From Octopus vulgaris (lineage: Eukaryota), in contig OX597820.1 of the NCBI GenBank assembly GCA_951406725.2, forward strand, positions 127,162,001 to 127,226,000: a DNA stretch of 64,000 bases, in the 5' to 3' direction. Of this stretch, positions 16,571-58,724 are shown piece by piece; position 1 is the first letter of the stretch, and the number at the start of each line of letters is the position of its first letter. The notes beneath the pieces are model-generated. The model worked only from the letters and a program-made list of their open reading frames with translations, did no database searches and had not been told where the DNA came from. The translations under genes were made by a program, and so were the position numbers.

Positions 16571-18005
16571 TTCCATTCCTTTTAATGGTGTTGCCCCAGC
16601 ATGGCCACAGCTCGTGAGCTGAAACTAGATAAAATGAAATGCTAAATGAAACAGTGTTATACATGCTCATTGTATCATAACTAAGAGTTGTAAACTTGGT
16701 AAGCAGTTTTTAACTAATACAAATGAAGGTGATAGACATCACCAAATGACTAAAAAAAGGTTCAGTGACCTGCTGTCACACCTTTCGAAGCACTCAATAA
16801 CTTGAGATAACCTCATGCAATGTGACGTCTCACATTGTGATTTAAAGTTAAGATAAAATTAGAAAGCAAGTTTTAATTAAAATCTAATGCTATTATAAAT
16901 TACGAAGCAGTTGATTTAATCGACTTTAATCACAATTACACAGTTTTACTGACCATTAATTTCGCAGAAAAGTAGCAGCGAGAAATAAGAACAGTTAATG
17001 CATAGCTACAACTGTGGCTCAGGCCAGAGTTTTTCTTTCTTTTTTATATATATTTTACTGCATATTGATTGATTTTTTTTGAAGAACGCATTTAACTCTT
17101 CAGCATTCAGATTACTCTGTCGAATGTAATGCTTATTTATTCATATTGCTTTGAATTAATCATGCAGGCATGGCTGTGTGGTAAGAAACTTGCTTCTCAA
17201 CCACATGGTTCCAGGTTCAGTCCCACTGTGTAGCACCTTCTGCTTTAGTACCTTCTGCTGTAGCCTCAGGCTGACCAAAACCTTGTGAGTAGATTTGGTA
17301 GAGGAAAACTGAAAGAAGCCTGTCATGTGACCACGTGTGTACCGTTGGCGTTTTTTTTTTTTTTCCTCCGTCTTCCCTTCTTTGGATCTTTCCTTTTCCT
17401 ATGTTTCTGACGAAACGTTAAACCCTCCTTCTTTCCTGAGCGTCCAATAACACTATACTTGCTCCACGTCCTCGCATTGTTGTGTTTTCTCTTTGTGTTT
17501 TCATGTTTGAATTAACTGATATATATTGGGTCATTCCATAAATAATGTGGTTTTTTCAATTGCATGAAATGAAAATCAGAGGGGGATGGGATAAACTACC
17601 TGCATCAACTTTCTATAGAAGCAGCTAGTAATTTCACTCCTAGTTCAATTACTTTGATTCTGAGATCAACAAATTACTATATTTGCTGGCATATACAACT
17701 CCTGCCTTTTTCACAAGAATTCTTTACAGAACAAACACATTTATAAGCTTAGTCATACTCCTATTGAAAGATATTGTATTGTGGTTTTGCATGGGAAAAT
17801 GTTTTATTCTGTTCATGTAAATATAATGTTGCTACAATAGACTAGAATAAAACATATTCTTTCAAATTACCTGTATAGTTCTTATATATTTTCAGTCTCG
17901 CAAATTGCTATGCAGGATGTAAAAACTGATATTATGGGCCGTGATGTTTGTAAATGCGATAAGCCAGCAGGGTGGGTAGTGTACCACTGCTATGTATGGT
18001 TTTGT

Positions 18006-18224
18006 TGTCAGCTACCGTGGCTGGGCCTCTCTGTTCCATATTCATCTTGTCAGCTACCGTGGCTGGGCCTCTCTGTTCCATATTCATCTTGTCAGCTACC
18101 GTGGCTGGGCCTCTCTGTTCCATATTCATCTTGTCAGCTACCGTGGCTGGGCCTCTCTGTTCCATATTCATCTTGTCAGCTACCGTGGCTGGGCCTCTCT
18201 CTTCCATATTGATCTTGTCAGCTA
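18006..18224. repeat. 42-bp minisatellite, 5 copies plus a partial copy
   Basis: TGTCAGCTACCGTGGCTGGGCCTCTCTGTTCCATATTCATCT repeated at 18006, 18048, 18090, 18132 and 18174. Confidence 0.97.
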
Positions 18225-18586: not shown

Positions 18587-18739
18587 AAGGGTGTGATAGG
18601 TAAATTGTCAGGATTTTATATTTGTAATTTCATGTATGTGTACTGTTTGTTTTTGATTTTGTCGACTACACAGTATAGTAGGGTCAGTTGGGCACCGTCT
18701 GTGAGAAATACAGCACCATGATACAATTCACTCTGCCAG

Positions 18740-19162
18740 AAATTTGGAAACAACTGCTTGGCATTCATGCTGCAAGCTCCAGTACAAACAGATGGTGAAC
18801 ACACAGAACAACCATTTCCTTGCTGTGTCCCCAAAACATGTACCAAGAATGATAAAAATCAAACAGCCAGTCAGCATCATTGTGTTTGGAGTGATCACTA
18901 GCGATGGCGATGTTATGCCTCCATTCATTTTCTTACACGGCCTCAGACTCAACATCGAGGCCTACATGAAGTGCCTGGAGGAGGTAGTGCTGCCCTGAGT
19001 CAAGAGGGTGGCTGCTGGAAGACCCTATGTCTGGCAACAGGACTCTGCGCCCTGCCAGACAAATTGGAGAACCCAGTCATGGCCGTCAGACAATTTCTGC
19101 AACCACATCACCCCTAATAATTTGGCCACCTAACTCCCCAGACTGCAACCCCCTTGATTACT
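18740..19162 (+). pseudogene. Tc1/mariner-superfamily transposase relic, DD37D (maT) type
   Basis: VSIIVFGVITSDG...YMKCLEEVVLP*VKRVAAGRPYVWQQDSAPC...(1-nt shift)WPPNSPDCNPLDY; 37 residues between the second and third Asp after frameshift correction. Confidence 0.85.
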
Positions 19163-20520
19163 GCTTTACCATATTGTCTTTGTTGTAAAAATGCTGGTGA
19201 TGGTAGTAATTGTTATAATCATAATATTATTATTAGACAATTGCAGCGTTGAAGGTGTTTATAAGCCATTTAAGAAACACACAAAAACCGTTAGATTCAC
19301 TTCAACATTTAAATTTAATTTGTCAAAATATGTTAAAGTGAATCTAACGGTTTTTGTGTGTTTCTTAAATGGCTTATAAACACCTTCCACGCTGCTATTG
19401 TTTTCGTTCCAGCTCACGATCTCAGATCAAGTCACTCGCTATGCAAGTACATCTCCGTAATTATTATTAGAAATAGATTTAAAATCATCACTGTCATCAC
19501 CACTACAATTATCATCTGTCATCACTTCCATTCTTATTGCCATCACCTCCAATGACCATAAGTACATGAACCAATGAGGTTGCTTTCCTGTAGACACTCA
19601 ACGTGTTAGAAGTAGCAGTCAAATCTCCTTCAAACTATTGTACTATCTTTCAGAAAACGGGTCTGCTGGATTATGTATTCTTGGGTTTGTTGCACACAAG
19701 AAAAAAAGACAGGCTGCTTAAGAGTGGAATGCCTTCAATTATAGGGCTGTTCATTTGAGGGGTAGCGAGTGATTGGGGGTTAAATTGTAGCAGACATATC
19801 TCCATGAGCCATCAAGAATACAGGCTGCGATTATGATATCTCAGTCAGAAACAGCAACCAAATATTTCTCGGATCTCATGGATGTTCTATGTCTGAATAA
19901 AAAACATCATGATGACGATGACTGGAACACTTTTGATAATAGATTTTGAATTTGTTCAATTGGTGATGACGTGGGTTTTTAAGCAACAACTAGACATCAC
20001 CACCATGATGATTTGTAGTTTGAAGAATAACATAGAACATAACATCTGCTTGCAGAACCATCCAATTTATGCTTAATTCCCCCTCCCCCCCACCACACAC
20101 ACATGTATATAAAAGAGATAGGGAGAGAAGGGCAAGTGGCAGAGAGGGGGAGTGCAAGTGGGGAAGTTGATTGATGAGTGAGTAAGTGAAAGTAAGTAAG
20201 TTATTCAGACATAAATATATTTTTGGTACTATTGTTGGTTTGGTGTTAACTTCTGTTGCAGTTTAAGCATTGGAATCTCAGACATAAGATTTGTCCGATC
20301 TAATGAGGAAAAGAAAAAGAAAAACATTTTCAACAAACAGAAAATAACTATATGTATAAAAAAAAATCTAAAAATATTATGATTACAAAATGAATGACTG
20401 AAGAAATTTTGGCACTTATGACTATGGATATGTATGTATGTATGTGTGTGTGTGTGTGTGTATATATGTATATATATATACATCTATATTTTCATTTTGC
20501 TTTTCTTTGTCTTTTTTCAG

Positions 20521-20592
20521 GAGGCTCAGTTTCAGAGATTATCTGAAAAACTTGACATTGAAAGACAACCCGTAGCCAACAAATTGAAAAAG
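20521..20592 (+). CDS. CTNND2: Internal coding exon of a delta-catenin/p120-family (catenin delta-2/plakophilin-4-like) gene, N-terminal coiled coil
   Basis: Strong acceptor (ttttgcttttctttgtcttttttcag), 72 nt in phase 0/0, donor AAG|gtattt. Translates EAQFQRLSEKLDIERQPVANKLKK, resembling vertebrate CTNND2/PKP4 '[24 protein letters not shown]' as recalled. Exact paralog assignment uncertain. Confidence 0.85.
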
Positions 20593-23189
20593 GTATTTAG
20601 CAAACATTAAGAATTTTATTTACTTAAATACATAAATAAATATAATATGTCTGTATAAATATGCATGTTTTGTTTTTGTAATCATCTGAAGTTACAAAGT
20701 TACTTTGTTATTTGGTAAGTTCCACCTGCACAGAGTTCTTGGTCCTTGAGTCACTTTGTAATTTCTGCCAGTTAAGAATTTTCTTAAAATGGTGTTTATT
20801 CAGGTTTTGAGTTCTGTTTACCTTGTCTGTACTAAAAAAAGTAAAAGCTCTCTTTAGTCATGCATAACCATGGGATTGTTCCTAGAAAGTTACCCTCTGA
20901 GGCACAAGTCTGTTTATGGAAGACGAGCAGTTATCCATGCATACCAGCCTCCCCTCTCCATGTTATCAAAGGGAAAGTTCCGATAGTTTAACACCAGTGA
21001 TGTTGCAACTCATTTCTACAGCTGAGTGAAACTGGAGCAACGTGAAATAAAGTGTCTTGCTCTCGGTCAGGGAATCAAACTCACTCCCTCATGATTGTGA
21101 GTCTGACACTCCAACCACTAAGCCATGCACCTTACTGTACTACCAAACCTGTAAAATATGAGTGCATAAATGTGTGTGAATGTGTGTGGGTGAGAGAGTG
21201 TGTGTCCTGTCCATCTGTCAGAGTAATGAGGACCATCTGGACATCCTGTGAGATGACTGATAACATTCATGGTAACTTTGTTTAAAATGAAGGGTTGTGC
21301 ACCAACAACCTCACTTTCTTGTCTGTGATCCAATGGCAAGACAAGGTCAAGATGACTGGGAACAGGGACAGATGCTGGGGATGACAAAGATGTCTTACTT
21401 GCCACACCTTGCTCTCTCCATTTTACAATGAATGCGTTGCCAGTACTGCCTGACTGGCCCCGTGCCGGTGGTACGTAGAAGGACCCACTACACTCTCGCA
21501 GTGGTTGGCGTTAGGAAGGGCGTCCAGCTGTAGAAACTCTGCCAGATCAAGATTGGGGCCTGGTGCAGCCATCTGGTTTGCCAGCCCTCAGTCATTCATC
21601 CAACCCATGCTAGCATGAAAGTGGACGTTAAATGATGATGATGATGATGTTGCTGTAGCCACTTTGTCTTCCATTGAACCATGAAGGTTTCTTCTGCAAA
21701 GTCCACTGGATCCAGTCTTCACACGCATAAGTAGACAAACCCCTAATATGCCAATCAACATTTGTGGGGAATGGTTTGTTTGGTAAAATCTGGAAAGGAA
21801 TCTCTCAAGACTTCTGAAAAACTCCAGCATCGATCCAGAATCATTGAAAAAACCTTATTGGAGAAAGCTGTATGTGATGTAATTTCTGCCAAGAGCAGGA
21901 TTAAATATCTATTGCAGGCATAGCACAACTTATGTTGGTAATTGATTCCAAAACATGTGAATTAACTCAAAAAAATTTTAATAATGTGAGAAAACATTTA
22001 AAAAAAATTTATTAGCTGATATCTGTTCTGAGACGTGAAATACTTGTCACTGAAAAGAACAACTTTGAGTATATGTGTACACACACACGCACACATATTG
22101 TGTGTGTGTACCTATAATATAGTGTGTGGTGCTAATGCTATGTAAAAAGCACGCTGTACAGTGTGTAAAGTGGTTGGTATTATGAAGGGCCTCCAGCTGT
22201 AGAAATTGTGCCAGAACAAATAATGAAGCCTGGTGCAGCTCCTGGTCTTACCAATTCCTTTCAAACCGTCCTACCCATACCAGCATGGAAAACAATCATT
22301 AAATGATGTTGGCGATAATGATGATGACGTTGTTTGGGCATATTTTCGCATGTATTTTATTTAATTTTCCACCGCAGTATTGATTTTTAGGAGGTTTTTT
22401 TTTTTTTAAAGTTTAATGTTTTTAAATAGGTTTTCTGAGACTGACAATAAATCAAATAAATTGACTGAAGTCGAGGTTTACCGTTTCCATTAATTTCTCA
22501 AAAAGAAAGAAAAAAAGAAGAAAAAAACACAAATAAGACGTAAAGCTGTAAAAGATGTAACATGAAAGAACATTAAGTTGAGGTTTGCCTGTATAAATGC
22601 CTCTGAATGAAAAGACAAGAAACTCTTCTTGATTACTCTTGAATACATCCATGAGTGATGTCATAGTTTCCATACACAAATATGTGTGTGTGTGTTAGAG
22701 TGATTGAATGTGTATGCAGTGACATATTACTTCTTTGCTGCCATCCACCAAACAAAATGTTACTAAGTTACCGAGTGAGAATAATGTGATGTCCTAAACT
22801 AAAATTTGGACAAGGGGCTGAAGGAGAAAGAATATGCTGAAACTAAACAAGGTGTATAAAGGCTGTGTATAAAACTGTACTTATTTCACTTAATCAAACT
22901 AAAATCATAACATTTGTTTTAACACCCTACTCCCCCCCCCCCACTCTCTAATCACACTTCTATTAACTTTGGTTTCTACACCAAACACAGAACTGCTCTG
23001 AATTATTCAACAGATCACACTTAAAATTCATCTGTGATTTTGTGCACTTGTTGACCGTTTGTTTGTGTGTGGGAAAGTAACTCTGTTTTGAATACTTATA
23101 TGGAGTTGGGGCTGTACAAGTTTCACTACATTTCTTGTGCATAAATTTTCATGTACGAATACATCATCACTAAAAGTAACATATTATAA

Positions 23190-26312: not shown

Positions 26313-27430
26313 GAGCGAGCTGACTCATTAGCAAGCTGGGTGAGATGCTCAAGTGGCGTTCTGTCCATCTCCACACATTCTGAGTCGAAATTCTGCTGAG
26401 GTTGACTTTGCCTTTCATCCTTTCAGGGTCAATAGAATAAGTACCAGTTGAGCACTGGGGTCAGTGTAATCGGCTTAGACCCACCCCTTGAACATGCTGG
26501 CCATGTGCCAAGATTTGCAATTATTATTATTATTATTATTATGAAGGCAGTGAACTGGTAGAATGCCAGGCAAAATGTCTAGCACCATTTCATCTGTCTT
26601 TATATTTGATTTCAAATTCCACCAAGCTCAACTTTGTCATTCACCCTTTTAGGGTCGATAGGTTAAGTACCAGTTGAACACTGAGGTTGATGTAATCAAC
26701 TTTCTCCCACCTAGGAAATGGTGGCCTTGTGCCAAAATTTGAAACCAGTATTGCTTTAGACGCTAATTTTTAAGGCAGCGAATTGGCAGAATCATTAGCA
26801 TGCCAGGCAAAATGCTTAGCGCTATTTCATCCATCCTTATGTTCTAAGTTCAAAATCAGCCAGGGTCAACTTTGCCTTTCATCCTTTTGGGGTTATTGAA
26901 ATAAGTACCAGTTGAACACTGGGGTCAATATAATCAACTAGTCCTCTCCCTCAAATTTCAGGCATTGTGCCTGTAGTAGAGAGTATTATTATTATTAAGG
27001 TGGTGAGCTGGCTGAATTGTTAGCAATCTGGACAAAATCCTTAGTGGTATTTCATCTCTTACGTTCTGAGTTCATATTCCATCGAGATCGTCTTTGCCTG
27101 TCATCATTTCGGAGTCAATAAATACCAGTGAAACACTGGGGGTCGATATAATCAACCATCCTCCTCCCCAAATTTCAGGCCTTGTGCCTTCAGTAGAAAG
27201 GATTATTATTATAATTAAGGTGGCCAGCTGGTAGAATCGTTAGCATGCCAGACGAAATACTTGGTGGTATTTCGTCTTCACATCCTGAGTTCAAATGCTG
27301 CCAATGTTGACTTCGACTTTCATCCTTTCAGGGTTGGTAAATAACAGTTGAGTATTAGAGTTGATGTAATCAACTTAGTCCCTCCCACAAATTTTCAGGC
27401 CTTGTACCTATAGTAGAAAACATTACAATT
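26313..27430 (+). mobile_element. Five head-to-tail copies of a ~220-bp SINE (family B, Meta-domain-like core, (TTA)n tail)
   Basis: Units start at about 26313, 26545, 26773, 26998 and 27218; B box GAGTTCAAATTC; core GACTTTGCCTTTCATCCTTTCGGGGTCGATAAAATAAGTACC resembles the MetaSINE domain as recalled. Confidence 0.85.
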
Positions 27431-29109
27431 ACCAATAATATTAATACACCAACTTGTTGCTTTTGTACATACATACCTGTGGTATGAGTCACATTTACTT
27501 CAAAGGAAGAAGTGAGTGGGAGAGAGGAGGACAGTGAGTGGTGACGGCATTCATTTTCTGTTTTTAAATATTTATCACATCACAAGAAAATTTGATACGT
27601 AAATACCTTCATTGTTAAATTAAAAGTGGAAGAGGGAAGGGACAGAGGAAGTGAGGGGGAGAGAGAGTAGATACATAGATCGAAAGAAAAATTGATACAT
27701 AGATACATAGACACAAAGTTAAACAACTACAGCAAATATTGGATGTCACTTTCACTACCACACGAGGATAAAATTAACTCACAAGTGGCTGAGTACTCCA
27801 CAGATATGCATACCATTGACGTAGTTCTCAGGGAGACTCAGCCTCACACAGAAAATGACATGGCTGGCCCCTTTGAATTGCAGCTATAACTCATCGTGTC
27901 CAGCTGAGTGGACTGGAGCAAGATAAACCAAGTAGTTCAAAGAAAATGAAAAAAGATCCTATATTGGGGCAGGAAAATCTTTTTAGTTGTTAGGGTCACT
28001 ATGGGTGTTAATCTGGTCCTGACAGCAGTATTTGTGGTTCTCACAGATCCGGAAGCCAAGCCCCCATATAAACACCAATGCACAGGCTGTTGTTATCAAA
28101 CTGAGCATGAGTCAAGGGCAAAGTCACTACATGGCAGAATAGCAATTATTTCATCTTGGCTTTCACTGCTTACATGAAACACGACACTTTTCCCTTTCGA
28201 TTGGGAACATTTCCTTTCCTTTCTCTCTTTTCCAAAAATTGTCACTTTGTCAGTTAAGACAATGAGGTTCCTCTTTATCTGATCAATGGAAATGTCTGCT
28301 TGTAAAATTAACTCACAAGTGGCTGAGTATTCCACAGACATGCACACCGTAAGGTAGTTCTCGGGGAGATTCAGCCTCAAACAGAATGGGACGAGGCTGG
28401 CTCCTTTGAATTACGGCTACAACTCAGTGATCTGAGTGGACTGCAGCAAGATAAAGTAGAGTACCTTGCTCAAGAACACAGTACACCACAGGGAATTGTA
28501 CTCATGACTTTACGATCGTGGGCTGAATACTCCTAACCACTGAGTCACGCACCTTCACTCTCTTAACTGTAGAGAAAAGGGATGAAGCGATAGAGAAAGG
28601 GAAGCATCAGTCATTTACAACGACAATTAGACTGGGATCTAGTTTTTTTCATTAGCAAAATATGTATTTTTTAAAAGACAGTAAAAAATTCTGAAAAGCG
28701 GTTATATTAATGTAGCTTTCCAGTCTCATTGCTTTGAAGGTATAATGTTGTGGAGAAATATGTTACAGAGGTTTAAAAAATCAAAAAAAAATCATATATT
28801 TTTAGCCAATAGTGAGATAGAAATTTTCTGCATTTAGCCGAGCGGTGTCAACATTAAGATTGTATCTTGTGAAATTTAGAGTTTAGCATCTGACCTGTTC
28901 ATTGTAGGTTTCTAAATAAACAGAAATACCTAATAGAATCAACATGTATCATCGTACTGTCTCTCTTGTCTTTTCATTGATTATATTGTTGTTTTTTTTC
29001 ATTTGTAATATTAATATATTTGTCTGCTTGTGTTTACTTTAGGCATATTTCAGTATTATGATTACCTGTCGTGTATTAGTGTACATCATTAATATATAAG
29101 TGTATGTGT

Positions 29110-40169: not shown

Positions 40170-41275
40170 AATAATGATAATGGTATCAAATTTTGGCTTA
40201 AGGCCAGAAAGATTTGGGAGAAAGGATTAGTCAGATATATCAGCCCCAGTAATTGACTGGGAAATTGGAAATCTGTATGTAAAGAGGTGGAAGAAATGTC
40301 ACTAATTTTTTTGTGCAATGCATTAACGACTACCTCGGTAATAAGAATAGCTTAAAATTTTGGCTCAAGGCCAGCAAGGTCAGAGGAGGGGGTAGAACAA
40401 TTACATTGACCCCAGAGATCAATTAGGACTTAGTTTATTAACCCTTAAAGGCTGAAGGACAAAGTCGACGGCAACAGCATTTGAACTAAGAATATAATGT
40501 CAGAAGAAATGCTTCTAAGCGTTTCACTTGACTTAACAATCGATTCTGTCAACTTGTCACCTCAATAATAATAATGGGTTCAAATTTTACTACAAGGGCA
40601 GTAATTTTGGGGAAGGGGATGAGTTGATTACATCAACCCCAGTGTTCAACTGGTACTTAATTTATTGACCGCAAAAGGATGAAAAGCAAAGTCAACCTCA
40701 GTTGAATTTGAACTTAGAACATAGCGACTGGTGAAATATTGCTAAGCATTTCATCCAATGCGCTAACAATTCTGCCACCTCACTGCCTTAATAATAGTAA
40801 TAATAATAATAGTGGTTTGAATTTTGGAACAAGGCCAGCAATTTTAGGGGAAGGAATTAGTCAATTACATTGAACCCAGTGCTCAACTGGTACTTATTTT
40901 ATCAGCCCCGAAAGAGATGAAAGGCTAAATCCACCTCAGTGGAATTTGAACTGAGGACATACAGACAGACGAAATGCCACTGAGCATTTTGTTCATCATG
41001 CTAATGATTCTGCAAACTCACCACTTTAGTAATAATTGGTTTCAAAATTTGGCCCACGACCAGCAAATTTGGTGGGGAAAGATTAAGTAGATTCATCGCT
41101 CCCAGTGCTCAACTTGTACTTATTTTATCGATCCCGAAGAGATGAAAGGCAAAGTCGACATTGGCGGAATTTGAAATGAAAATGTAAAGACAGAGAAAAT
41201 GCCACTAAACATTTAGTCTGATGTTCCAACGGTTCTGCCAGTTCACCACCAAAACAGTAATAATAATAATAACAA
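40170..41275 (-). mobile_element. About five head-to-tail copies of family B SINE, minus strand
   Basis: Repeated ggtacttattttatc...aaaggatgaaaggcaaagtcgac...ggaatttgaact separated by (TAA)n. Other copies at 3540-3960, 4700-5200, 31910-32120, 33700-33910 and 56500-56715. Confidence 0.85.
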
Positions 41276-42198
41276 TAAAAATAATGGAGAATACTAATGG
41301 GGATAAAAGTTGTCAAATAACAGTGTTAATGCTAAAAGCCAGACTGTTAAAACCATTACAGAATTAGCACAAACTGAAATACTATTGCCTGTGTTTGTTT
41401 TCATTTATCTCTTTTTTGTTATCTTTTGTTCTTTTTGTTCTTGTAAATGGTTGATAATGACAAATTAATGTAAAGTGTATAAAATACAAACAGTGAAATG
41501 CTTATTAAGAACATTAGTTATTTGTCTTTTGTAATTTTAAATCACTTCTCGCCTGCTGCTCTTTTTTTTGGTTTTGTTTGTTTTTGTGTAGTTTATGTAT
41601 ATATTTATTCTTTTATTTTTGATATCCAATTTATAGATGAGACAAGCAATTGCTAAATTACTAACACCCTAAATGCTTCTAAGCATCATATATGTGTGTG
41701 CACACATATGTGTGTCCATGTGCATGCGAAGGTGTCTGCATGTGCATATATATATATATGGTTGTGGGCATGTATGTGTGTGTGTGGCTGCATGAATATA
41801 TGTGTGTGCATATGTTTGTACATATGTATATCTGTCTGTCTGTGTGCATATGCATGCATGCATGCATATGTTGAAGTATCCTACAAGCCGTTATCAAAGT
41901 AATCATACAGAAACAAAGCGGTTATTAATCATGCACGCTGTTGGTTTTGCATGAGCAATTAGTGCATCTTTTCTGGCACTCACCACATTGTTTCCTACGT
42001 GAAACAATGAGAGGAGGAGGAGGAGAGACGCAATTTAATCTGCATGCAGGGCATTATTTGTACCGGTAACCAGCAGTCTTGTGCTTTGTTCAGTTTCAAT
42101 GTGTGGTCTCATTCTACACTGATCAATATTTGATTGATGATTGATAGAATATTGTTAGGCATTTTCTGCTACAAAGATCCATGTATTATTTCTCTGTA

Positions 42199-42256
<58 letters not shown>

Positions 42257-43235
42257 GTATATATATATATTGTGTATATATATATATATTGTGTATATGT
42301 ATACATATATATACATACACTCATACACAGACAGTATTCAGTCTTTTCAGATACTGATTAACAAGCTCTTATAACTAAAGAGCTGTCACAGTGTGGTATT
42401 TGGAGAAGAGAGGAGATTCCAAGCTGTTATTTCTTTGACTCCTGAAATAATGAACCTCTAAATAGAGCAAGTTTTCTTCTTTAGAATTCTTGTGTACATT
42501 TTTTTTTTCATTGTTGTAAATATAACATTGCACAAAATTACACTATTAAAAGAAATGTGTACTTGAAAATGGTATGAGGTAGTAGAAGAGAAGGCACGGA
42601 ATCTTTATTCTAACTAGTTCGGTAACTTGGCATTCTGTGTTGTAATCCTGTCAAGAGTAGATTTTAAACAAAACTTCTCTTTTTAGTCAATAAAAATAAA
42701 ATGCGCTCTGTTATACTGGGGTAAAACCAGTCTTGAAATTGAAAGGGCATATGCGTGCACGTACGCACACACAAATATTGACTTTTGTACCAAATCTAAG
42801 AAGCTGCATTAGATGAATTGACAGAATTTTGTAAAGGGTCATAAAAATTAACCCCCCCACCTCTCTCAGTTTTTAAGGGTCAAGTTATTGGCAGCACTTG
42901 ATGCTGTGTAGCTCCTAGTGAAACAAGCTTAGATTAAACTTTATCTTTCTTACTTCTTGGGTTCCTGAAAATAAAGTACTTGTTCAGAACTGCCCTTGGG
43001 TTAACTAAAACCTCCCCAACAATGATTTGTGGCCTCGTGCTTATATTAGTGGTAATAATAGCAAATTTTTTTATTATATTGGCAGTGAGCTAGAGGAGCT
43101 GTTGGCATGCTGGGCAAAATGCTTAGCAGCATTTTGTCCATTTCTATGTTCTGTGTTTAAATTCCATTGGGGTCTACTTGGCCTTTCATCCTTTCAGCAC
43201 TGAAAATTACTGGCTTTGTGCCAAAATTTGAAACC

Positions 43236-43266
<31 letters not shown>

Positions 43267-43999
43267 AATGATAATAAAAATGTGTTTAATAAAAATTTTG
43301 GGTGTAGTTAAGAAGTTTGTTTCCCAACCATGTAGTTTTAGGTTCAGTCCCACTGTGGGGCACCTTAAAGCTTTGTGTGTGGACTTGGTTGAAAGGAGGC
43401 TATTATGTGTGGTGAGAGTGTACATTTGTATATGAGTGTGTGTGTATACACACACACACATGTATGGGTGTGTTTGTGCCTACTCCTCTTCACATCATGT
43501 GATAGGCATTAATGAGTGTCACCTTCATGCAAAACCATGTCCAATCTTCCAACTTCCATGAAAGCATGCCCTGTCATGGGGGTGATGTTACCCTATTTAG
43601 ATTTGGATGCAAGTGAGGGTTGTCTGCAGGAAGAGCATCTACTTGTAGGAAAATCTGCCTCAACAAATTCCACTTGACCCCTGCATGCATAGGAAAGTAA
43701 ATAGCAAAACAATGACTTCTGTTGGAATAAAGTATCTTTGTTTTCAACTGATTTGTAAAATAATAATTTTGTGAAATAACATTACCATTATTTAGCTGGA
43801 AGAATTGTTAGTGCACTGGACCAAATGCTCAGCTGCATTTGATCAAAGAGCTGACCAAACAGTTGTAATACACATTGTCAAAACTGACAGACACCTACGG
43901 TTGTGGGGGTTTTTTTATGTCATCTCTCTTGTATCATCAAAGACTATTTTTTGATCAACTTGTGTTGTGTTGTTCCTAACACTTATTCTACAAGAATTC

Positions 44000-46900
44000 T
44001 ACAGGATGTATAGAGTGGGCCAAAAGTAGATACAGGATGTATAGAGTGGGCCAAAAGTAGATACAGGATGTATAGAGTGGGCCAAAAGTCGATACAGGAT
44101 GTATAGAGTGGGCCAAAAGTAGATACAGGATGTATAGAGTGGGCCAAAAGTAGATACAGGATGTATAGAGTGGGCCAAAAGTAGATACAGGATGTATAGA
44201 GTGGACCAAAAGTAGATACAGGATGTATAGAGTGGACCAAAAGTAGATACAGGATGTATAGAGTGGGCCAAAAGTAGATACAGGATGTATAGAGTGGGCC
44301 AAAAGTAGATGCAGGATGTATAGAGTGGGCCAAAAGTAGATGCAGGATGTATAGAGTGGACCAAAAGTAGATACAGGATGTATAGAGTGGGCCAAAAGTA
44401 GATACAGGATGTATAGAGTGGACCAAAAGTAGATACAGGATGTATAGAGTGGGCCAAAAGTAGATACAGGATGTATAGAGTGGGCCAAAAGTAGATACAG
44501 GATGTATAGAGTGGGACCAAAAGTAGATACAGGATGTATAGAGTGGGCCAAAAGTCGATACAGGATGTATAGAGTGGGCCAAAAGTCGATACAGGATGTA
44601 TAGAGTGGGCCAAAAGTAGATACAGGATGTATAGAGTGGACCAAAAGTAGATACAGGATGTATAGAGTGGGCCAAAAGTAGATACAGGATGTATAGAGTG
44701 GGCCAAAAGTAGATACAGGATGTATAGAGTGGGCCAAAAGTAGATACAGGATGTATAGAGTGGGCCAAAAGTAGATACAGGATGTATAGAGTGGGCCAAA
44801 AGTAGATACAGGATGTATAGAGTGGGCCAAAAGTAGATACAGGATGTATAGAGTGGGCCAAAAGTAGATGCAGGATGTATAGAGTGGACCAAAAGTAGAT
44901 GCAGGATGTATAGAGTGGGCCAAAAGTAGATACAGGATGTATAGAGTGGACCAAAAGTAGATACAGGATGTATAGAGTGGGCCAAAAGTAGATACAGGAT
45001 GTATAGAGTGGACCAAAAGTAGATACAGGATGTATAGAGTGGGCCAAAAGTAGATACAGGATGTATAGAGTGGGCCAAAAGTAGATACAGGATGTATAGA
45101 GTGGGCCAAAAGTAGATACAGGATGTATAGAGTGGGCCAAAAGTAGATACAGGATGTATAGAGTGGGCCAAAAGTAGATACAGGATGTATAGAGTGGGCC
45201 AAAAGTAGATACAGGATGTATAGAGTGGGCCAAAAGTAGATGCAGGATGTATAGAGTGGGCCAAAAGTAGATGCAGGATGTATAGAGTGGGCCAAAAGTA
45301 GATGCAGATGATGTAGATAGGAGTAAGGGCCAAAAGTAGATGCAGGATGTATAGAGTGGGCCAAAAGTAGATGCAGGATGTATAGAGTGGGCCAAAAGTA
45401 GATGCAGGATGTATAGAGTGGGCCAAAAAGTAGATACAGGATGTATAGAGTGGGCCAAAAGTAGATGCAGGATGTATAGAGTGGACCAAAAGTAGTCAGG
45501 ATGAGTGGCCAGATCAGGATGTATAGAGTGGACCAAAAGTAGATGCAGGATGTATAGAGTGGGCCAAAAGTAGATACAGGATGTATAGAGTGGGCCAAAA
45601 GTAGATACAGGATGTATAGAGTGGGCCAAAAGTAGATACAGGATGTATAGAGTGGGCCAAAAGTAGATACAGGATGTATAGAGTGGGCCAAAAGTAGATA
45701 CAGGATGTATAGAGTGGGCCAAAAGTAGATGCAGGATGTATAGAGTGGGCCAAAAGTAGATGCAGGATGTATAGAGTGGGCCAAAAGTAGATGCAGGATG
45801 TATAGAGTGGGCCAAAAGTAGATGCAGGATGTATAGAGTGGGCCAAAAGTAGATGCAGGATGTATAGAGTGGACCAAAAGTAGATACAGGATGTATAGAG
45901 TGGGCCAAAAGTAGATACAGGATGTATAGAGTGGGCCAAAAGTAGATACAAGATGTAATGAGTGGGCCAAAAGTCGATACAGGATGTATAGAGTGGGCCA
46001 AAAGTCGATACAGGATGTATAGAGTGGGCCAAAAGTCGATGCAGGATGTATAGAGTGGGCCAAAAGTAGATGCAGGATGTATAGAGTGGGCCAAAAGTAG
46101 ATGCAGGATGTATAGAGTGGGCCAAAAGTCGATGCAGGATGTATAGAGTGGGCCAAAAGTAGATACAGGATGTATAGAGTGGACCAAAAGTAGATACAGG
46201 ATGTATAGAGTGGACCAAAAGTAGATACAGGATGTATAGAGTGGGCCAAAAGTAGATACAGGATGTATAGAGTGGGCCAAAAGTAGATACAGGATGTATA
46301 GAGTGGGCCAAAAGTAGATGCAGGATGTATAGAGTGGGCCAAAAGTAGATGCAGGATGTATAGAGTGGGCCAAAAGTAGATACAGGATGTATAGAGTGGA
46401 CCAAAAGTAGATACAGGATGTATAGAGTGCACCAAAAGTAGATGCAGGATGTATAGAGTGCACCAAAAGTAGATACAGGATGTATAGAGTGGACCAAAAG
46501 TAGATACAGGATGTATAGAGTGGGCCAAAAGTAGATACAGGATGTATAGAGTGGGCCAAAAGTAGATGCAGGATGTATAGAGTGGGCCAAAAGTAGATGC
46601 AGGATGTATAGAGTGGGCCAAAAGTAGATGCAGGATGTATAGAGTGGGCCAAAAGTAGATGCAGGATGTATAGAGTGGGCCAAAAGTAGATGCAGGATGT
46701 ATAGAGTGGGCCAAAAGTAGATACAGGATGTATAGAGTGGGCCAAAAGTAGATACAGGATGTATAGAGTGGGCCAAAAGTAGATACAGGATGTATAGAGT
46801 GGACCAAAGAGATCAGGATACAGAGAGATAGAGTGGGCCAAAAGTAGATACAGGATGTATAGAGTGGGCCAAAAGTAGATACAGGATGTATAGAGTGGGC

Positions 46901-47440
46901 CAAAAGTAGATACAGGATGTATAGAGTGGACCAAAAGTAGATACAGGATGTATAGAGTGGGCCAAAAGTAGATACAGGATGTATAGAGTGGGCCAAAAGT
47001 AGATACAGGATGTATAGAGTGGACCAAAAGTAGATACAGGATGTATAGAGTGGGCCAAAAGTAGATACAGGATGTATAGAGTGGGCCAAAAGTAGATACA
47101 GGATGTATAGAGTGGGCCAAAAGTAGATACAGGATGTATAGAGTGGGCCAAAAGTAGATACAGGATGTATAGAGTGGACCAAAAGTAGATACAGGATGTA
47201 TAGAGTGGACCAAAAGTAGATACAGGATGTATAGAGTGGGCCAAAAGGAGATACAGGATGTATAGAGTGGGCCAAAAGTAGATACAGGATGTATAGAGTG
47301 GGCCAAAAGTAGATACAGGATGTATAGAGTGGGCCAAAAGTAGATACAGGATGTATAGAGTGGGCCAAAAGTAGATACAGGATGTATAGAGTGGGCCAAA
47401 AGTAGATACAGGATGTATAGAGTGGACCAAGTAGATATAC
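44000..47440. repeat. 31-bp tandem satellite, about 110 copies (TACAGGATGTATAGAGTGGGCCAAAAGTAGA)n
   Basis: Directly visible; highly homogeneous with recurrent variants GGGCC/GGACC, GATAC/GATGC and GTAGA/GTCGA. Confidence 0.99.
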
Positions 47441-47634
47441 ACTTTAAATTTTTTCCATTTTATTACATTTACTCTTATTCAATTACAGTTACATTTATTA
47501 AACACAGTTTAATCTCCTAAATGTTTCACTTTCTTTGTTCTTGACTCAAATTATTTGTCATTATTTACGGTACCTGTAAAAAAATTAATTAATTTAAAAA
47601 GTGTATACCTACTTTTGACCCCCCCCCCCCTGTA
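47417..47634. mobile_element. Tc1/mariner-type MITE (~215 bp) whose left TIR is continuous with the satellite
   Basis: Right end aatttaaaaagtgtatacctacttttgacc(c)n-tg|ta is the reverse complement of left end tatagagtggaccaagtagatatacactttaaatt; CAG terminus with TA flank. Confidence 0.7.
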
Positions 47635-48846
47635 GTAGATGGGTGGGGAAACTTTTTAGTGCAGCAGGCAAAAATTTCCGAAGTCAAACGTCCTTAGGTA
47701 GATCACAAGTTCTGACTCTTATATCTGTGTAAATCTTGTATATATCGATGTATAATTTGATATACATAAATAAAGATAAGTTTAACACATTGAATTAACA
47801 TGTAACATCTTCATTAATATTGCCACTGAATTTAGGACATTTTATACTTATGAGGTATTCTATATTTTTCAAAATGTACCTATCCTAATATTGGAGAAAT
47901 CATTACAATCAAGCACAGACCACATTTAATCTTTAAAAACTGCATTGATATGTAAATGACATAAACAAATTTATCCTAGTGATAATTTTATCAAAGCTAA
48001 TTAACCATTACTTTAAAATTTGGTTTTGTCTAGTGAGAAGGATGAAACTGCTTTTTTTTATTTATTTATTTTTTTTTTTTTTGAAGTTTAGGAATATCAC
48101 ATGCCTTTGAAGAAACTGCGATTCTTAGTCCTTTACTCAAGTTTTCATCGGTAAATCTGGTACAAAGATGATTTTTTTTGCATAATCTAGTTTGGTAAAA
48201 AACTGCTCGCATTTTTTGCAAAAATGTGGAAAAGGAAATAGGGAGGAAAATTTAAATACTTGGGATTCTTGGATATGAATAATTTTTACACAGTATCTTC
48301 TACAATCCTTCAACTTTCATTTCATATAAAAATTATTTCAATACATGCAATGTATTTTTAGTTTTCTCAGCTAAAGTACAGTTGGGTCTCAAGAGGATGA
48401 TACAAACCTAGCAATATGTGTTGTATAGTGAAAACAAGCTTTCCATTCAAATGGCAATTTCCAGACGATTTCTCTTCGAGTCTGGCTGTTTTAAGTTGTC
48501 CTGCAAACCTAACCTATGTCACAAATAGGCATACAAGTATCGTATAAAGTTCATTATTGAAACATTTACCCTATTTTGCACAAACGAGTATATCAGCCTG
48601 CAGGCACAATAAAATGGGCTGGTGGGTGCAATTGTGCTCACGGGCAAGTCTCTCCCCATCCCTGCTTTAGTAGAAGAGTATGTTTCCTTAATTTCTTTCC
48701 AGTGTTTAGTTAGACATCCCTACCGCAAACCGTCCCTGATCAATCAAGCCATCTATGCCATTCCACCCTTGACCACCCTGTCTTTTTCTCAGCCATTCTT
48801 CATATACTGCAGCATTATCCAGTATGTTCTCTTTCTTTTAAGCCAT

Positions 48847-49240
48847 TTACTCTTTTACTTGTTTCAGTCATTTGACTGTGGCCATGCTGGAGCACTGCCT
48901 TTTAGTCGAGCAAATCAACCCCAGGACTTCTTCTTTGTAAGCCTAGTACTTATTTTATCGGTATCTTTTGCCAAACCGCTAAGTTACGGGGACGTAAACT
49001 CACCAGCATCGGTTGTCAAGCGATGTTGGGGGTACAAACACAGACACACACAAACATATACACACACAAACATATATACAACGGGTTCTTTCAGTTTCCG
49101 TCTACCAAATCCACTCACAAGGCTTTGGTCGGCCCGAGGCTATAGTAGAAGACACTTGCCCAAGGTGCCATGCAGTGGGACTGAACCCGGAACCATGCAG
49201 TTGGTAAACAAGCTACTTACCACACAGCCACTCCTACGCC
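48847..49240 (-). mobile_element. Full-length young family A SINE
   Basis: Intact head GGCGTAGGAGTGGCTGTGTGGTAAG and (GTAAAAGA)n tail; CpGs retained. Confidence 0.9.
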
Positions 49241-49899
49241 ATTTAGGTATAAATTTTGAGGAAGAAAAATTGACTTATTTCTCATAGACTATGCAAGCGC
49301 AATGAGGCTTGTTGGCTTCTGTATTGTTTTGTCAATTTGTTCTCTGGAGTGTATAAAAAAAGACACAATGTTTCGGGTAGTGCCACCTTTCTCAGCCAAC
49401 CAAGTTCTATCCTATTATGAATTTGAGCGATGTTTCTCTGTCCTTCAGGTTTTTAGGTTCATTAACTCCTCCTAGACTATTGGTGCAAGGACAATAAAAC
49501 TCAAACCAGCAGTTTTCCTAATCCCAGGGAATGTCCTAAGCAGGGTCTATTTTTTAAGGGCCACCTAATTGGAGCCCCACTTAAACAAACCAAAGATTCT
49601 TGTTTCGATAACTTCTGCACTTGTTGCACATGCACACAAGGTGGCTGATGCTGCACATTAAAGATTAGAATTCACTAAAACTTCAGAAGTAGCTACTCAG
49701 TCACTTGCACAGCTACTCTCCATACAGACTGTGATAACACAACACACACAGACACACACATTTTATATATGTGTATGTATATGCATGTATATATATGTAT
49801 ATCCATTTATATATGTATATCCATCTGTCCATTCATCAATCTGTCTGAAGGTGGAACTGCTAGCACACAGCTGCTGCTAGGTCATATGTATTTGTGTAA

Positions 49900-50476
49900 T
49901 CTATATATATAAAACTGTAGTTGTGTGAGTGTCTGTCTCCTACGATTTAGATTCCTAACTCCTCCCACATTTTGCGGTGCAGTTTAACCAAATTCGGGTA
50001 TCTTATAGTCGTGATTAATATCGAGCCCGTCTGGCTATTAGCGCGCGTCTACGATGAGTCTACGATTTTAAAAATAATTTAACATAATTTTTTATTCCAT
50101 TTTAATGCATAATTTTTCGTGTGTCGATGGCGGCGGAGTTGGCGTCCACGCTCAAACAACTGCACCTGTGTTTGCTTCTCCCCCTTCTTCCCTCCCTCGT
50201 GAAGCTGTGGGGAAGGGAGTTTAAGGAAATCAACGTCGTAATGCGTTGTCAAGGAGACCAGCGTTCTTTTAGAACAACAACTTCATGGCTTGAAGACACC
50301 AAAACAGAAATGGCTAAGAAAGCCCGAATTGGCATCTATAAAGGAAGTAACTCTCTAAAAATGCTTATATGGCGGTGCCCCAGCATGGCCACAGCTCATA
50401 AGCTGAAACTAGAATCAATCAATCAATCATAGTTATTTCCCTTACAAACCCGAGCAACGCCGGGCGATACTGCTAG
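49900..50476 (+). mobile_element. Non-autonomous Helitron (~577 bp)
   Basis: Inserted between A and T; 5' TCTATATATATAAAA; 3' hairpin CCCG-AGCAACGC-CGGG followed by CTAG; no TSD; CpG-rich, hence young. Confidence 0.85.
50371..50430 (+). mobile_element. Very short 5'-truncated LINE/SINE 3' end with (AATC)n tail nested in the Helitron
   Basis: GGCGGTGCCCCAGCATGGCCACAGCTCATAAGCTGAAACTAG(AATC)n; same tail motif as the SINEs and the 5S chimera. Confidence 0.7.
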
Positions 50477-58386: not shown

Positions 58387-58542
58387 TGATTGAATTTTTC
58401 CTTTATGGTATCACATTGCGCTTAGTTGTTTATATTTATTTTATATATATATACTCACATCTAGAACTTTTAACATGCATGACGCTTATGCATGGTGCCA
58501 AATGAACTAACCATGTTGTTATCTTCACTGTTTTTGTTTCAG

Positions 58543-58724
58543 TGTAGGTTAAATAGTGACACCCCAACCATGACTAGCGCCCCTAATGTTAATGGAGACT
58601 CCCACAACTGGCGTAGTCCAGCATTACATGATTCTCCCGGAGCTGTCTCCTCTATTCATAGTGATGTCCTCGAGGACTCACCGGATGATTCTAAAATGAG
58701 CTCACATCTGTTGGATTCCTGCAT
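58543..58724 (+). CDS. CTNND2: Next coding exon of the same delta-catenin-like gene
   Basis: Acceptor tttttgtttcag, donor AT|gtgagt, 182 nt, phase 0 start matching the previous exon. CRLNSDTPTMTS...NW...SHLLDSC parallels CTNND2 'CKLGSETGSMSS...QW...ELVDSC', which directly follows the coiled coil. Confidence 0.85.

Follow-up and report, generated by a model that had tools for sequence, protein, structure and literature searches.

A 31-bp intronic minisatellite in Octopus vulgaris, probably grown from the 3' end of an internally deleted Tc1/mariner element

How does one end of a small non-autonomous DNA transposon come to be repeated about 110 times within an intron, and does the resulting array serve any purpose? 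These questions are raised by a locus in the window, i.e., the whole 64-kb stretch of Octopus vulgaris DNA that was analyzed. A preliminary description had proposed that the left TIR of a Tc1/mariner-type MITE was amplified in place to form a satellite, and that this created a dense array of potential transposase-binding sites. Our analysis supports amplification in place. In our reading, which we give a probability of about 0.74, the array consists of repeats of the 3' end of a Tc1/mariner element, likely of the DD41D type, that internal deletion has reduced to 215 bp. It likely arose through in-place tandem duplication of the decayed end, likely expanded through slippage or unequal exchange to become a minisatellite of variable length, and likely has no function. 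The features discussed below are located in Table 1.

Table 1. Positions of the array, the adjoining elements, and the host exons within the window.
Feature	Position	Strand	Remarks
Upstream exon of host gene	20518..20592	+	Residues 40-64 of P0048, 96% identity; GT donor at 20593
11-bp tandem pair, 10/11 identical	43985..44006	+	Covers first 7 bases of unit 1
31-bp minisatellite, ~110 copies	44000..47437	+	Unit: terminus-like 9-mer TACAGGATG + terminus 9-mer TATAGAGTG + TIR core GGCCAAAAGTAGA
Outer terminus-like 9-mer of last unit	47407..47415	+	Likely duplicated terminus; alternatively host flank
TA in register with family terminus	47416..47417	+	TACA starts exactly 9 bases before core in 84/122 related ends
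3' TIR (window-left), decayed	47418..47447	-	Base 1 C>T; further G>A changes; last copy shortened by 2 bp
Last four transposase codons and stop (HLGD*)	47509..47523	-	Aligns with L056 and L055
First eleven transposase codons (MTNNLSQEQRK)	47529..47561	-	9/11 identical to P0004 N-terminus; E 1.8 alone
5' TIR (window-right)	47598..47632	-	Includes G12 run
TA at right end of MITE	47633..47634	+	Read from sequence
Second, unrelated high-copy DNA element	47638..48664		Short TIRs; 8-bp flanking duplication CTGTAGTA / CTTTAGTA
Downstream exon of host gene	58543..58724	+	Residues 65-125 of P0048; AG acceptor at 58541-58542

Tandem Repeats Finder called the array at period 31 with 48.3 and 62.2 copies and, over the same span, at period 93 with 37.0 copies; the consensus unit was TACAGGATGTATAGAGTGGGCCAAAAGTAGA. 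After splitting the array at the unit start, 54 of 107 segments were identical to the consensus and 101 of 106 full segments were clean 31-mers, with a mean divergence from the consensus of 1.8%. The other five comprised two segments with a 1-bp insertion and three indel-rich multi-unit stretches (starting at 45272, 45466, and 46784), which resemble uncorrected read errors; because of these three, the exact copy number is soft. An array of some 110 copies and 3.4 kb, as first described, was nevertheless recovered, and its dimensions are those of a minisatellite (units of 10-100 bp in an array of kb scale). No second copy of the 31-bp unit or of the adjoining MITE was found elsewhere within the window. 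The tandem array is real, and a minisatellite confined to one locus accounts for the evidence better than a satellite family does. Rfam gave no matches over 42000-50000. Stop-free frames of up to 1158 codons run through the array on the minus strand; they were rejected as coding and are an artefact of a unit that has no stop in any minus frame. A separate 42-bp minisatellite (5.2 copies, 98% matches) is present at 18005-18224.

The MITE that adjoins the array is 215 bp long. Its left boundary is 47418, within the last array unit, and not 47441. Both TIRs are decayed but clear, and TA stands in register at either end. The inverted match noted earlier between the array end and the sequence downstream was confirmed as a 17-nt arm of 94% complementarity (47429-47445 with 47598-47614). 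When the unit was compared with the following 250 bp in reverse complement, the score was 21, which was reached by none of 241 background windows, although the best of these scored 20, making the result modest when taken alone. The right TIR contains a run of 12 C (47619-47630; G on the minus strand) where relatives have CCCACCC (GGGTGGG), and this is either a homopolymer expansion or a read error. No intact transposase is present: 11 codons from its start and 4 from its end are left, on either side of an internal deletion junction at approximately 47524-47527.

Four of 24 public runs were compared with the window over 47376-48815, namely three contig runs with different organism codes (X1, X3, and X7) and one raw-read run (X22); the latter gave no reads even on the high-copy element next to the MITE and carries no weight either way. 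The small word shares of the organism C runs (0.13-0.16) were set aside as evidence. A T>C difference at 47558 was shared by 12, 10, and 5 contigs of X1, X3, and X7, respectively, and another at 47566 by 9, 7, and 5. With shared differences in 5-12 contigs in every one of the three runs, the MITE belongs to a dispersed, multi-copy family and is not a single-copy sequence, a point on which the preliminary description hung. Moreover, five contigs of X7 depart from the window exactly at 47523 and continue into transposase C-terminal sequence; read by hand, this loose end encodes CCHVEGGHFD, a C-terminal motif of related transposases. Together with the retained codons, it indicates that the MITE is an internal-deletion derivative and that the array stands at its 3' TIR. 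The amplified TIR is thus the left one in the orientation of the window, as originally stated, but according to the minus-strand codons it is the element's own 3' end.

A scan with the TIR core over 4 of 64 parts of the metagenome contigs yielded at least 95 loci, from which the related ends were taken, while viral contigs gave no matches to the core. Among the matches listed, TACA lies exactly 9 bases before the core in 84 of 122 related ends, and this register fixes the family terminus as TA-CAGGGTG-GGCC. The consensus of 101 related ends listed holds to about base 29, bases 8-26 being fixed by the search pattern, and agrees with the short TIRs of 28-32 bp rather than those of >460 bp (sizes from PMC5490172); it was built from the ends of other organisms and may not equal that of the host's family.

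At the DNA level, 47527-47625 is 70-76% identical to four of the related loci (L088, L056, L081, and L083; best E 2e-13), and both halves of the MITE are homologous to L056 and L055. L056 is itself a deletion derivative that keeps both transposase ends; a 43-residue frame within it matches 47 proteins, and Pfam found nothing significant in two L056 fragments. The two full-length relatives that were scanned carry the Pfam domains DUF4817 and DDE_3. By script, the second and third aspartates are 41 residues apart in 3 of 6 full-length relatives; the other three were mis-scored by the pattern, and none of the six rows has an alignment gap between both aspartates. As the catalytic triad is deleted in the window, the DD41D assignment rests on flanking homology. 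Accepting this, the MITE, already recognized as Tc1/mariner-type, is likely an internal-deletion derivative of a DD41D (rosa-type) transposon. It shares with rosa/DD41D and their deletion-derived MITEs the TA ends, TIRs near 28-32 bp, the internally deleted non-autonomous form, and, in full-length relatives, the 41-residue spacing; the accessible portion of that account, on the other hand, describes no tandem amplification of an end (PMC5490172).

The named cluster members of the related transposases come from bats and a leafhopper. In the P0002 and P0003 clusters, transposase relatives are annotated as genes in several bats, which possibly represent recent invaders or a domesticated copy. Within the window, a decayed second Tc1/mariner-type transposase lies at 18705-19167 on the plus strand, upstream of the first matched exon (tblastn against P0004: E 2.6e-8, 28% identity, one stop).

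Comparison of the array with the related ends showed that, within the first 22 TIR bases, each unit agrees at 19 positions, after which the register is lost. Bases 5-19 are retained, and every unit carries decay changes, namely the terminal C>T and two G>A. The unit extends from the outer TA to a TA at TIR bases 21-22, with TACA at both edges of the TIR, and both junctions within it read TA followed by a terminus. The commonest terminus 9-mer is TACAGGGTG (25 of 117 distinct ends listed). Among the same matches listed, TACAGGATG is the in-register terminus of 9 of 117 related ends and TATAGAGTG that of 3 of 117, which makes both 9-mers natural terminus variants, in agreement with the preliminary description of two terminus forms per unit. 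A doubled terminus, in contrast, occurs in none of the 117 related ends listed, where the next 9-mer outward never has fewer than 4 mismatches; it is peculiar to the array locus. The 11-bp tandem pair at the left edge, of a kind that covers 0.8% of background bases, may be another duplication of flank plus terminus. The duplications of 11, 9, and 31 bp would then make three nested duplications at the array end.

One other locus provides a parallel. L006, from another organism and of the same TIR family, has at least four TIR-containing units abutting one short complete MITE (727-1295, 94% matches). Its 142-bp unit differs in consisting mostly of non-TIR sequence plus a complete TIR, and its array runs to the contig end. 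Among the matches listed, this was the only TIR-containing array of such kind in 95 loci. At L003 (1091-2340), a long low-complexity tandem repeat without TIR starts directly next to another, very short MITE from this family.

The history that we propose would begin with a DD41D-type transposon whose interior was deleted and which multiplied into a MITE family, as the retained codons and the multi-copy contigs indicate. One copy would have landed at a TA in the host intron, where its terminal 9 bp may have been duplicated and both copies have decayed; neither an empty site nor an allele with a single unit was seen in the sequences compared. The 31 bp that run from the outer TA as far as the inner TIR TA would next have been duplicated by way of the short TA/TACA repeat at the TIR edges. 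Slippage on TA yields 31 bp at once, whereas on TACA it yields 33 bp and requires the later loss of TA; the Haber-Louis model, as summarized in PMC6947457, calls for 5-10 bp of homology, longer than either repeat here. Speculatively, fold-back of TIR on TIR could have aided this step as a stalling structure, and the last two units together with the MITE do fold back (z = -2.68). The dimer would finally have expanded about 110-fold by copying of neighboring units, an event that we place in the recent past. The units are only 1.8% divergent yet all share the decay, which suggests that expansion postdated decay and came long after insertion.

The distribution of variants among units is explained by such later growth from neighboring copies. 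The A2G variant forms 15 adjacent pairs against 5.65 expected (p=0.00005), A29C also clusters among neighboring units (p=0.003), as does G19C (p=0.019, with only 2 carriers), and G20A shows no significant clustering (p=0.069). No higher-order repeat was found, only lag 1 being clearly above expectation (0.56 versus 0.36). The clustering of variants reported initially was thus recovered and reflects local duplication of neighbors, but its interpretation as ongoing homogenization goes beyond the data.

Sequence depth over the unit differed among the contig runs. In X3, the unit bin had a depth of 10,295 versus 32-67 for its eight listed contigs, a ratio of about 150-330. This is roughly what a single array of the kind would give and is compatible with one locus, but it is no copy number. 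In X1 the depth was 66, compared with 22-29 for five of eight listed contigs and 123-297 for the remaining ones, which looks like a few units at most, and in X7 it was 0. Since summed contig depth gives no copy number and some records were filtered, the contrast between X1 and X3 is only suggestive; as it stands, the unit depth across the three runs suggests a recent and variable expansion.

The surroundings confirm that the array is intronic, as was initially stated, in an octopod p120-catenin/ARVCF-like gene. Two consecutive exons, matching the armadillo-repeat protein P0048 at 96-97%, flank it and enclose an intron of 37,950 bp; a second protein match, at 84%, is labeled Argonauta hians. 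The ORF at 28327-28533 was rejected as an exon, having no relative found and being absent from the P0048 alignment, and Pfam detected nothing above cut-off in 30 ORFs of the window. Only 3 bp from the right TA of the MITE, a second element is inserted, which we take to be hAT-like from its 8-bp target site duplication. It reaches depths of up to ~50,000 in all three contig runs, with loose ends at 47641, 48620, and 48634. Its flanking 8-mers match at 7 of 8 positions with the MITE present and, when the MITE is removed by eye, at 6 of 8. At 40564-41021 and 26900-27419, repeats of 220-238 bp form tandem clusters (about 2 copies per cluster, 75-77%) that resemble cephalopod SINEs.

Other readings of the locus have to be weighed against this one. 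The outer 9-mer TACAGGATG could be host flank, so that the unit would consist of flank, TA, and 20 bp of TIR, a chance likeness to the terminus having seeded the slip. That units of flank plus TIR do form is shown by L006, the 11-bp tandem pair in the flank covers TACAGGA, and the absence of doubled termini from the related ends listed speaks in the same direction. Such likeness is rare, however: 9-mers with no more than one mismatch to TACAGGGTG have a frequency of 5e-5 per position elsewhere in the window, and the exact 9-mer serves as terminus in the relatives mentioned above. We consider host flank unlikely, and it ranks second to a duplicated terminus as the source of this 9-mer. More improbable still is that noisy long reads, or collapse and expansion in assembly, account for most of the assembled length, the true array being short or elsewhere. 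Consistent with an artefact are the three indel-rich segments, the lack of any contig spanning the stretch, and the best-holding run, X1, in which the unit reaches only ~2-3 times low-copy depth. Random read error, on the other hand, would hardly produce shared and clustered substitutions over 101 clean units, and the depth in X3 is two orders of magnitude above that of its other listed contigs.

The least probable reading, to which we attach very little weight, gives the transposase an active part, either as the builder of the array, through repeated attack of the end on TA within its own TIR, or as a protein that the array attracts as a decoy or chromatin-binding platform. The TA-plus-terminus junctions fit such attack, but the consensus TIR has no TA at bases 8-9 that could have been the target for the first junction. 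Binding is made conceivable by Mos1, in which the linker binds bases 15-18, a region within the retained bases 5-19, and the contacts of HTH1 lie in the inner repeat, G22 among them (PMC4505599), as well as by a domesticated mariner DNA-binding domain that binds TIR remnants genome-wide (PMC9062482). By analogy, each unit would be a partial putative transposase site. Against this, no unit retains the terminal C, and the register fails beyond base 22, the inner region being the one in which Mos1 HTH1 makes its base contacts (PMC4505599). Family copies are diverged, and no intact host transposase was seen. Because the unit departs from the TIR beyond base 22 and has mutations from decay, there is no support for a role in transposase binding, and the dense array of binding sites postulated at the outset finds no backing in the units as they read. 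The absence of the array in X7 and its weakness in X1 also argue against a conserved function. In sum, the minisatellite derived from a transposon end is likely an ordinary length-variable repeat without function.

Tandem repeats derived from parts of transposable elements, TIRs included, are well documented (PMC9659126, PMC12628747, PMC4079207, PMC3389668). The array resembles TE-derived minisatellites in being a single-locus array from part of an element with local duplication; the examples described for those, however, are mostly retroelements with ~2 units (Ahmed and Liang 2012, PMC3389668; Paco et al. 2019, PMC6947457), whereas here the end of a DNA transposon forms ~110. Tandem arrays of TIR or MITE sequence are also known from TIR-220 of Tetris (PMC4079207) and from Xenopus Xstir/Xmix and miDNA4 (as summarized in PMC12628747 and PMC9659126), and some of these are still joined to the parent element. 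Their repeats, though, are internal, mobile with the element, and genome-wide as described in these sources, while the octopus unit holds the very terminus plus TA and the evidence points to one locus. In the mostly open-access literature searched, no paper was found on this array or on end-derived DD41D arrays. The array is a well-resolved case of a known class of TE-derived minisatellites, and reveals no new system or function.

A bolder generalization, which we regard as rather doubtful, would make DD41D ends recurrent seeds of arrays by virtue of their TACA edges and fold-back, the 11-, 9-, and 31-bp cascade here and the 142-bp unit of L006 being two outcomes. In this case, the octopus array would be a young, hypervariable 3.4-kb VNTR whose length influences how the p120-catenin-like gene is spliced or expressed, or which titrates transposase.

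Transposable elements are the source of at least 23% of human minisatellites and satellites, and an initiating mechanism is recognizable in only 6% of those (PMC3389668). The birth of a minisatellite is rarely caught with its parent intact. At this locus the parent element, the amplified end, and the junction are all legible, as is an independent locus that parallels it. Unit depth seems to vary about a hundredfold among related organisms. The locus thus lends itself well to testing how an array is born from the end of a transposon, and it may provide a highly variable marker.
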